Shown: positions 20,550-20,741 of the stretch, one piece after another | Layout of the letters: every line of letters starts with the position of its first letter | How positions within the stretch are numbered: the stretch's first letter is position 1 | Origin: Corynebacterium amycolatum | GTDB lineage: Bacteria; Actinomycetota; Actinomycetes; Mycobacteriales; Mycobacteriaceae | DNA length: 32,000 bases | Assembly: GCF_049243625.1 (NCBI RefSeq) | Contig: NZ_CP046975.1 | Strand: one strand, 5' to 3' | Program-made: the position numbers and the translations under genes | Notes under the pieces: model-generated | Database searches by the model: none | What the model saw: the letters and a program-made list of their open reading frames with translations, nothing else | What the model was told of the DNA's origin: nothing

Positions 20550-20741
20550 ATGTTTCGACGCACTTCTGTTCTTGCTACCACCATTGCATCCGCAGCACTT
20601 TCCCTAGGCGCGCTGACCGGCACCCCGGCCGCTGCCGCAGCACCGACAGCTACAACCGGCAGCGACGACCTACAGGTTAAGGAATACGCTCTTTCCGATA
20701 CCTTCTCTTGCGACTACTACAACCTTCCGTGGTGCCGCTAA
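20550..20741 (+). CDS. 63-aa secreted prepeptide with a C-terminal C-x7-C loop
   Basis: GGAG sits 9 nt upstream of the ATG. N-terminal MFRRTSVLATTIASAALSLGALTGTPAAAAA resembles a signal peptide (the RR is weakly Tat-like). The tail is ...DDLQVKEYALSDTFSCDYYNLPWCR. It shares QVKEYA with the adjacent paralogue 3. Confidence 0.55.
   Translation: MFRRTSVLATTIASAALSLGALTGTPAAAAAPTATTGSDDLQVKEYALSDTFSCDYYNLPWCR

Follow-up and report, generated by a model that had tools for sequence, protein, structure and literature searches.

Modulators of sensor kinases of the MgrB/PhoQ type are proteins of fewer than 70 residues that combine one N-terminal hydrophobic helix and two conserved extracytoplasmic cysteines with a genetic tie to a two-component system (PMC8404706). 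In the ComX system, the small precursor gene adjoins those for ComP, a polytopic HPK7-class kinase, and ComA, a LuxR-type regulator (PMC4008528). The HPK7/LuxR class of kinases and regulators has been reviewed for corynebacteria, the HisKA_3 kinases being those designated HPK7 (PMC3353115). In aerolysin, C-terminal pro-peptides control folding and oligomerisation, and caps likewise control epsilon toxin (PMC3136475). Here we analysed a stretch of 32,000 nucleotides from Corynebacterium amycolatum (assembly GCF_049243625.1, contig NZ_CP046975.1; the whole stretch is hereafter called the window) and, within it, a small-peptide gene at positions 20550-20741, which a first-pass annotation had singled out because its product shares the hexapeptide QVKEYA with the C-terminal tail of a divergently encoded protein, here called paralogue 3. 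Our overall reading, to which we assign a probability of roughly 0.6, is that the gene encodes a small extracytoplasmic peptide tied to a neighbouring two-component system, that the QVKEYA match is coincidental and that the tail of paralogue 3 is a strand of that protein. To our knowledge, no peptide-based signalling and toxin-control module has been described in the genus Corynebacterium.

The peptide gene and its putative expression signals are:
20550-20741, plus strand: small-peptide gene, 63 codons plus stop, its homologues confined to the C. amycolatum / C. lactis group.
20438-20465, plus strand: promoter-like site TTCACA-16 nt-TATGAT, with 10 of 12 matches, about 85 nt 5' of the peptide start.
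20537-20540, plus strand: GGAG ribosome-binding core, 9 nt 5' of the ATG.

The open reading frame (ORF) translates to MFRRTSVLATTIASAALSLGALTGTPAAAAAPTATTGSDDLQVKEYALSDTFSCDYYNLPWCR, a product of 63 amino acids. Homologues were sought in three ways, with a word index, with a profile run exhaustively against 1.84 billion representatives and with a further profile, and all three confined them to the C. amycolatum / C. lactis group, with nine distinct lineages when contigs are counted. The ORF was intact in 20 of the 20 loci that carry the gene, 13 of them C. amycolatum-type, and also where flanking genes are deleted or frameshifted. The length of the peptide varies from 61 to 91 residues between lineages, and the differences are always whole codons. 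The spacer 5' of the gene is otherwise poorly conserved, and the elements retained in it are those expected to serve expression, namely the ATG, the ribosome-binding region TTTCGGAGT (kept in seven of the eight aligned lineages) and the -10 box, which persists in diverged relatives as TATGAT, TATTAT or TACAGAT while the remaining spacer does not. Because length changes come in whole codons, the ATG, the GGAG and the -10 box are conserved, the ORF is intact in every carrying locus and the C-terminal core is constrained as described below, comparative evidence identifies the ORF at 20550-20741 as a genuine, translated and selected gene, which is annotated but uncharacterised. As for other candidates from the searches, the profile-search matches P0034-P0036 were repeats or unrelated large proteins, and L030, from a metagenome scan, was a false match picked by the search pattern itself.

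Four segments can be distinguished within the peptide:
20550-20639, plus strand: residues 1-30, an uncharged hydrophobic segment of putative export or anchor type, VLATTIASAALSLGAL, then an alanine run with AxA-type sites; hydrophobicity conserved, sequence variable.
20640-20672, plus strand: residues 31-41, a variable Pro/Thr/Ala/Ser/Asp linker differing in length and sequence among lineages, with nonsynonymous close to synonymous divergence.
20673-20690, plus strand: residues 42-47, the hexapeptide QVKEYA (cag gtt aag gaa tac gct), which is kept inside the C. amycolatum group but not beyond it.
20697-20738, plus strand: residues 50-63, the conserved core DTFSCDYYNLPWCR, with Cys54 at 20709-20711 and Cys62 at 20733-20735.

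Constraint was concentrated in the last of these segments. In four of five distant comparisons, the proportion of nonsynonymous differences (pN) in the core was 0.03-0.06 against a proportion of synonymous differences (pS) of 0.27-0.64, giving pN/pS of about 0.05-0.12, whereas in the hydrophobic segment with its linker and in the QVKEYALS segment pN was near pS (0.42-0.62 versus 0.63-0.79). On these sequence comparisons the C-terminal core is under strong purifying selection, and given the contrast between the core and the QVKEYA segment, the function of the peptide would lie in its C-terminal loop and not in QVKEYA. The invariant columns are D50, T51, F52, S53, C54, Y57, L59, P60, W61 and C62, with T51 replaced by serine in locus L022 (DSFSC), so that the family pattern reads D-[TS]-F-S-C-x2-Y-x-L-P-W-C; upstream of it, just ...YA[LM] recurs in most lineages.

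The hydrophobic N-terminus would carry the peptide into or across the membrane. Across the family, the uncharged stretch beyond residue 6 spans 22-37 residues, with a hydrophobic core at V7-L22 in the window peptide, followed by small residues at -3/-1 as read from the sequence and an alanine run (A27-A31) that offers AxA sites. The segment is likely, though not securely, a classical Sec-type signal peptide; if it were cut behind A29 or A30, as predicted, the mature peptide would have 33-34 residues (3.7 kDa, net charge -3, pI about 4.1 [4.05]). Alternatively, it may be an uncleaved membrane anchor with a spacer. A Tat signal was rejected, since the RR pair is not conserved and is replaced by GH, GR, ER, GS or GN in relatives. 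In either of the two retained forms, the variable Pro/Thr/Ala spacer would come next, followed by the constrained module ...YA[LM]xDTFSC-x2-Y-x-LPWC. Every family member has exactly two cysteines, both invariant and spaced C54-x7-C62. Exported actinobacterial proteins fold oxidatively, and because of this and of the invariance of the pair, the two cysteines are most likely joined in an extracytoplasmic disulfide, which would close a loop of nine residues. The first-pass description of a small secreted-type C-x7-C prepeptide is thus borne out as a genuine conserved gene with a hydrophobic export-type N-terminal segment. The AlphaFold2 (AF2) model of the peptide was uninformative (predicted local distance difference test, pLDDT, 55), with a helix at residues 4-22 and a helical QVKEYA segment, both at low confidence. 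Neither the peptide nor the three paralogues introduced below belong to a Pfam or NCBIfam family, and a sequence search of the Protein Data Bank (PDB) with the peptide gave no match.

The putative partner of the peptide is encoded upstream of it:
15978-17162, plus strand: histidine kinase with a polytopic N-terminal membrane region followed by HisKA_3 and no large external domain.
17284-17952, plus strand: NarL/LuxR-type response regulator.

In the amycolatum/lactis clade the gene order is iron-sulphur (Fe-S) protein, kinase, regulator, three paralogues (reversed), peptide gene, and a flavin mononucleotide (FMN) reductase and a monooxygenase (both reversed). In all loci of sufficient length, kinase and regulator lie 0.2-2.6 kb from the peptide gene, and they are its only constant neighbours. 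Indeed, locus L022 has kinase, regulator and peptide without the three paralogues (the triad), and there the peptide gene starts 177 nt 3' of the regulator on the same strand. L022 groups with C. lactis-type loci that have the triad, and the missing triad is most simply a secondary loss. Given that the stable partner is the kinase with its regulator, a role tied to this two-component system is the most likely one. The peptide would then be an accessory, a ligand or a direct output of the adjacent pair; tentatively, we place an accessory or ligand of the kinase first, with a regulated secreted output as a further possible role and a partnership with the triad as an unlikely one.

By analogy, the peptide would be closest in its working to small proteins and peptides attached to sensor kinases, such as MgrB and ComX. 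With MgrB it shares a size below 70 residues and a genetic tie to a two-component system, and its architecture is compatible with a single N-terminal hydrophobic helix and two conserved cysteines placed outside the cytoplasm. However, the two have no sequence similarity, MgrB is enterobacterial and not encoded beside phoQP, the alanine run of our peptide suggests possible cleavage and release, and the interaction proposed here comes from gene order. As with ComX, a small precursor gene adjoins those for a polytopic HisKA_3 kinase and a LuxR-type regulator, all three on one strand in L022. Unlike in systems of the ComX/Agr type, no maturation gene of the ComQ, AgrB or C39-transporter type was called near the peptide gene, and the peptide has an export-type N-terminus and an invariant, active-looking core. 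Since it lacks homology, a called maturation enzyme and variation from strain to strain, the peptide does not appear to be a member of either the MgrB or the ComX group. Co-diversification of a pheromone type was rejected, the peptide core being invariant and kinase divergence even.

Sec-dependent class II bacteriocins with a disulfide, of the enterocin P type, combine a signal-peptide-like N-terminus with a small mature peptide and one cysteine pair. The peptide resembles them in all three respects, its mature part being a predicted one, but it is acidic, carries no YGNGV box and has no immunity or transporter gene called nearby. A bacteriocin was rejected on its acidity and on the absence of a called immunity gene in the neighbourhoods.

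The second gene concerned in the QVKEYA match belongs to the triad, whose members are:
19438-20031, minus strand: paralogue 3, secreted, 197 aa, beta-rich, tentatively aerolysin-like; AF2 pLDDT 75.
19441-19488, minus strand: C-terminal extension of paralogue 3, residues 182-197, DRSVDGAAPQVKEYAV, with QVKEYAV at 19441-19461.
18716-19390, minus strand: paralogue 2, 224 aa, with its own, longer and unrelated C-terminal extension (...KTTKEGEHRQQWAPVSGNSGDGGPASATIND).
18108-18707, minus strand: paralogue 1, 199 aa, without an extension.

Paralogue 3 ends in ...DGAAPQVKEYAV-stop, encoded at 19461-19441 (cag gtc aag gag tac gcc gtc). Its 16-residue tail occurs only in the amycolatum/lactis-type subfamily of paralogue 3 and in L003; six more distant orthologues are without it and end in ...SMRSNEA or in an unrelated sequence. 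The first-pass annotation had taken paralogue 3 to be the sole triad member with a C-terminal extension, which is incorrect, as only paralogue 1 has none; its suggestion that the C-x6-W spacing of the peptide recalls a C..W element of the paralogues was not significant (P 0.12-0.55). In the AF2 model nearly all of paralogue 3 is beta, and the tail contributes a strand at residues 191-196 (pLDDT about 77) packed on the domain. Residues 92-111 show an alternating amphipathic pattern, SVDFDLLKLFHVTFSAGYQS, modelled as a helix at 95-101 and then with pLDDT below 50 at 102-107. A Foldseek search of the PDB returned mostly aerolysin-family proteins as top matches (CPE, epsilon toxin, Cry23Aa1, Cry51, parasporin-2 and lysenin), the exceptions being botulinum HA70/HA3 chains. 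A PDB sequence search with a profile of the paralogue-3 family, together with paralogues 1 and 2, gave no match.

From these models, paralogue 3 is best read as a secreted protein of aerolysin-like type whose tail forms its terminal beta strand. Provided that this fold is correctly assigned, the tail would be a candidate C-terminal cap and would be explained without reference to the peptide. Like the pro-peptides of aerolysin and epsilon toxin, it is short, appears in the model as a strand against a beta-rich, aerolysin-like body and is found in part of the family; unlike them, it belongs to a mature protein of about 170 residues whose fold match is weak and which has no ETX_MTX2 or aerolysin Pfam match. 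The three paralogues may form an uncharacterised toxin-like family in Corynebacterium, and in the literature searched we found no paper that links the genus with aerolysin-like proteins or describes the peptide. Because the triad occurs in L003 and L005-L010 in unrelated contexts without the neighbours of the peptide locus (C. oculi, C. lowii, C. mastitidis, Neoactinobaculum and others), and is missing from the otherwise syntenic L022, it appears to be a movable three-gene cassette.

We then compared the tail of paralogue 3 with the corresponding segment of the peptide in each genome:
Window, L001, L012-14 and L023-29: tail QVKEYAV, peptide QVKEYAL.
L004: tail QVKEYAA, peptide QVKEYAL.
L021: tail DVKEYAA, peptide QVQEYAM.
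L002: tail EVKEFAA, peptide QVQEYAM.
L020: tail QVTEFAV, peptide ATTEYAM.
L017 (C. lactis): tail QVTEFAV, peptide ATKKYAM.
L015: tail KVTEFAV, peptide QITTASM.
L019 and L011 (one sample): tail DTQEFAA, peptide FQTYAAM.
L003: tail EVADLAV, no peptide within 6 kb.
L022: no triad, peptide AAKEYAM.

The first-pass annotation had described the match correctly: on re-reading, the ORF, the hexapeptide at 20673-20690, the tail at 19461-19441, the three third-position differences between the two encodings and the C-x7-C spacing were all exact. It had also named conservation of the motif in orthologues as the test of its own proposal, and this is not what we observed. Exact identity of the hexapeptide is limited to C. 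amycolatum proper; elsewhere the peptide has QVQEYA, ATKKYA, ATTEYA, AAKEYA, QITTAS or FQTYAA, and the tail also diverges or is absent. No compensating changes between tail and peptide segment were found in the 8 genome pairs, and each occurs without the other, the tail in L003 and the peptide in L022. From these comparisons, tail and peptide segments do not appear to co-vary, and their identity does not behave as a conserved shared element.

The proposal had further rested on the differences between the two encodings (cag gtt aag gaa tac gct in the peptide, cag gtc aag gag tac gcc in paralogue 3) being synonymous only, which was taken as a signature of selection. This argument is circular, since a stretch chosen for amino-acid identity can differ only synonymously. 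Under the codon usage of the window, two independent encodings of QVKEYA are expected to differ at 2.6 of the 6 codons and were observed to differ at 3, namely those for V, E and A, the three residues whose codons are used most evenly. As originally claimed, the six-residue match would therefore not matter, because its synonymous differences are those of any chance amino-acid match and it is lost in relatives. DNA similarity between the peptide gene and paralogue 3 stops at 17-18 nt, and none flanks it at the DNA or protein level in any lineage. The probability that the peptide shares a hexamer with any protein of the window is about 0.04-0.05, and an all-against-all comparison of the 33 window proteins gave 3 common hexamers (DEVFTR, EVVAVG and QVKEYA) against 2.9 expected from shuffles, the first two joining unrelated proteins. 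Unconstrained local alignment of the tail with the mature peptide gave P 0.003 in C. amycolatum and 0.06-0.69 elsewhere. Moreover, the unrelated cytoplasmic FMN reductase of L020 and L022 contains VTEYAM, with TEYAM in common with the L020 peptide, which indicates that such short matches come cheaply. On this evidence the QVKEYA identity is probably a coincidence that was sharpened in one species, and a shared function or a shared origin, taken together, is a doubtful explanation.

Several observations weigh against this overall reading. With respect to the match, the first-pass view that it exceeds chance depends on the comparison made, a shared hexamer being nominally unlikely for the peptide/paralogue 3 pair alone (P about 5e-4 to 3e-3) and hexamer sharing being at the expected level window-wide by the shuffle counts given above. 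Pre-specified homologous 7-mers were also closer than background in L020 (P 1e-4), L017 (0.02) and L015 (0.013), and in L019 and L011 with a one-residue shift only (P 0.004), values that come from lineages sharing ancestry and cannot be combined. This likeness would be one old and partly eroded resemblance that predates C. amycolatum and need not be pure chance. With respect to the gene and its export, the GC content at third codon positions (GC3) of the ORF is 0.56, compared with 0.62-0.80 in its neighbours, and a K/R-containing n-region is found only in C. amycolatum proper and L011 (RR in the window and in L011), the first six residues being without K/R in seven of nine lineages. The proposed link between peptide and kinase is drawn from gene order only, and the kinase diverges evenly along its length, with no hypervariable sensor region and no co-diversification of sensor and peptide. 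Finally, the Foldseek scores are weak for the aerolysin-like assignment (E about 1e-3, template modelling [TM] score 0.2-0.35, on a model of pLDDT 75), and none of 18 paralogue-family members matched the Pfam families ETX_MTX2 or Aerolysin up to E = 10.

Among the other explanations, the one that survives best, although it is unlikely, is that [QE]V[KT]E[YF]A is a shared functional motif acting as a common recognition, processing or docking strand. In one version, the peptide would occupy the groove of the tail strand in paralogue 3 as a trans mimic of a pro-peptide; in the other, one protease would cut both proteins. The pair-specific P of about 1e-3, the adjacency and divergent orientation of the two genes, the modelled packing of the tail strand on the domain, the above-background 7-mers in L020, L017 and L015 and the precedent of aerolysin-family control by C-terminal pro-peptides (PMC3136475) are all consistent with it. 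However, the segments drift without co-variation, L002 and L021 showing mismatches of the K/Q, Y/F and Q/E kinds and L017 and L015 only 1 of 6 identities, and the peptide segment shows pN about equal to pS in distant comparisons. The 7-mer values are not independent, for the reason of ancestry given above, the peptide segment is modelled as a helix at low confidence, and the motif would have to account for L003, with a tail and no peptide, for L022, with a peptide and no triad, and for the tail-less orthologues.

A common origin without present function is improbable. Here, a short piece would have been copied between the genes, or the peptide would be the remnant of a longer paralogue, in the amycolatum/lactis ancestor, with erosion ever since. 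It would account for a resemblance at homologous positions clade-wide, and for the triad, an apparently movable cassette, standing beside the peptide gene only in this clade. Yet there is no flanking similarity around the 18 nt in DNA or protein in any lineage, a ...KEYAM form of the peptide exists in the genome without a triad, and the similarity is strongest in the youngest clade, which is the opposite of simple decay unless C. amycolatum is a conservative lineage. We consider similarly improbable a combined scheme in which the peptide is an extracellular signal or co-sensor of a two-component system that controls three aerolysin-like proteins and in which, in C. amycolatum, the QVKEYA strand also mimics the cap strand of paralogue 3.

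We regard as very improbable that the peptide is the ribosomally made precursor of a natural product, with the CE1758-family monooxygenase and the CE1759-family FMN reductase as its modifying enzymes; in favour of this, their convergent genes lie immediately 3' in most loci, and the core is rich in Cys, Trp and Tyr. The pair is deleted or truncated in several C. amycolatum strains, at L004, L012-14, L026 and L029 (equivalent window interval 20789-22664), and frameshifted in the window while the peptide stays intact, so that a modifying enzyme conserved together with its substrate was not found and the hypothesis was rejected; the hydrophobic N-terminus also resembles an export signal and not a leader peptide, and no radical-SAM, YcaO or lanthipeptide enzymes were called in the neighbourhoods. 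That the ORF is untranslated and has been conserved as an RNA or as a regulatory element in the DNA is scarcely credible, because synonymous changes accumulate while core amino acids are fixed, indels are whole codons, start codon and GGAG are conserved and an Rfam scan of the 1-kb region gave a single match at E = 0.6, even though GC3 is not elevated.

On the preferred reading, the peptide gene is of modest usefulness, as it defines a very small family in the C. amycolatum / C. lactis group of skin and milk dwellers, tied by position to a two-component system. If peptide and kinase do cooperate, they would offer a tractable example of an actinobacterial sensor kinase with a small-protein or peptide partner; should the triad form pores, a common commensal and opportunist of humans would have a new family of toxin-like proteins; and if the peptide is a signal that acts together with a toxin cassette, the locus would constitute a peptide-based signalling and toxin-control module in Corynebacterium.

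The remaining observations concern the surroundings of these genes. Between paralogue 3 and the peptide gene lies one further feature:
20032-20549, no strand assigned: AT-rich divergent intergenic region (39-48% GC), poorly conserved except near both starts and at an inverted repeat.

The repeat, imperfect and of the form GTAGCC-N4-GGCCAC (20388-20403), follows AAAGACACCA; it is among the few intergenic blocks conserved across species and could be an operator or a hairpin. A search for an operator motif shared 5' of the peptide gene across lineages gave nothing above shuffle controls. Over the paralogues, the window shares 99% identity with loci from C. amycolatum SK46 and related assemblies. 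When the window was compared with L012, the three paralogues were 100% identical in protein (pS 0.03), while the signal/linker part of the peptide showed pS 0.22 and pN 0.13. Because the paralogues are identical and this part of the peptide has diverged, the comparison suggests recombination, with a breakpoint in the intergenic stretch that separates the peptide gene from paralogue 3 (window 20032-20741 versus L012-L014). On the other side of the peptide gene, a 1-nt deletion at about 21198/21199, relative to L001, L023, L027 and L028, breaks the CE1759-family FMN reductase (20789-21543, minus strand) into two ORFs that overlap, which reflects either a pseudogene particular to this strain or an error in sequencing. 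At 17945-18074, between the stop codons of the regulator and paralogue 1, a 16-nt unit (CGGAGTAGCAAAACAG alternating with CGGGATAGCAAAACAC) is repeated in tandem about 6.5 times, and the array passes into a perfect inverted repeat of 18 nt (18035-18052 / 18057-18074), an arrangement that resembles a two-way terminator. Further upstream, low-complexity repeats of the KGAP(T/S)PGGA type (about 14650-15300) take up several hundred residues in the C-terminal third of the 1184-aa Fe-S / CCG-domain protein (12255-15809, plus strand).

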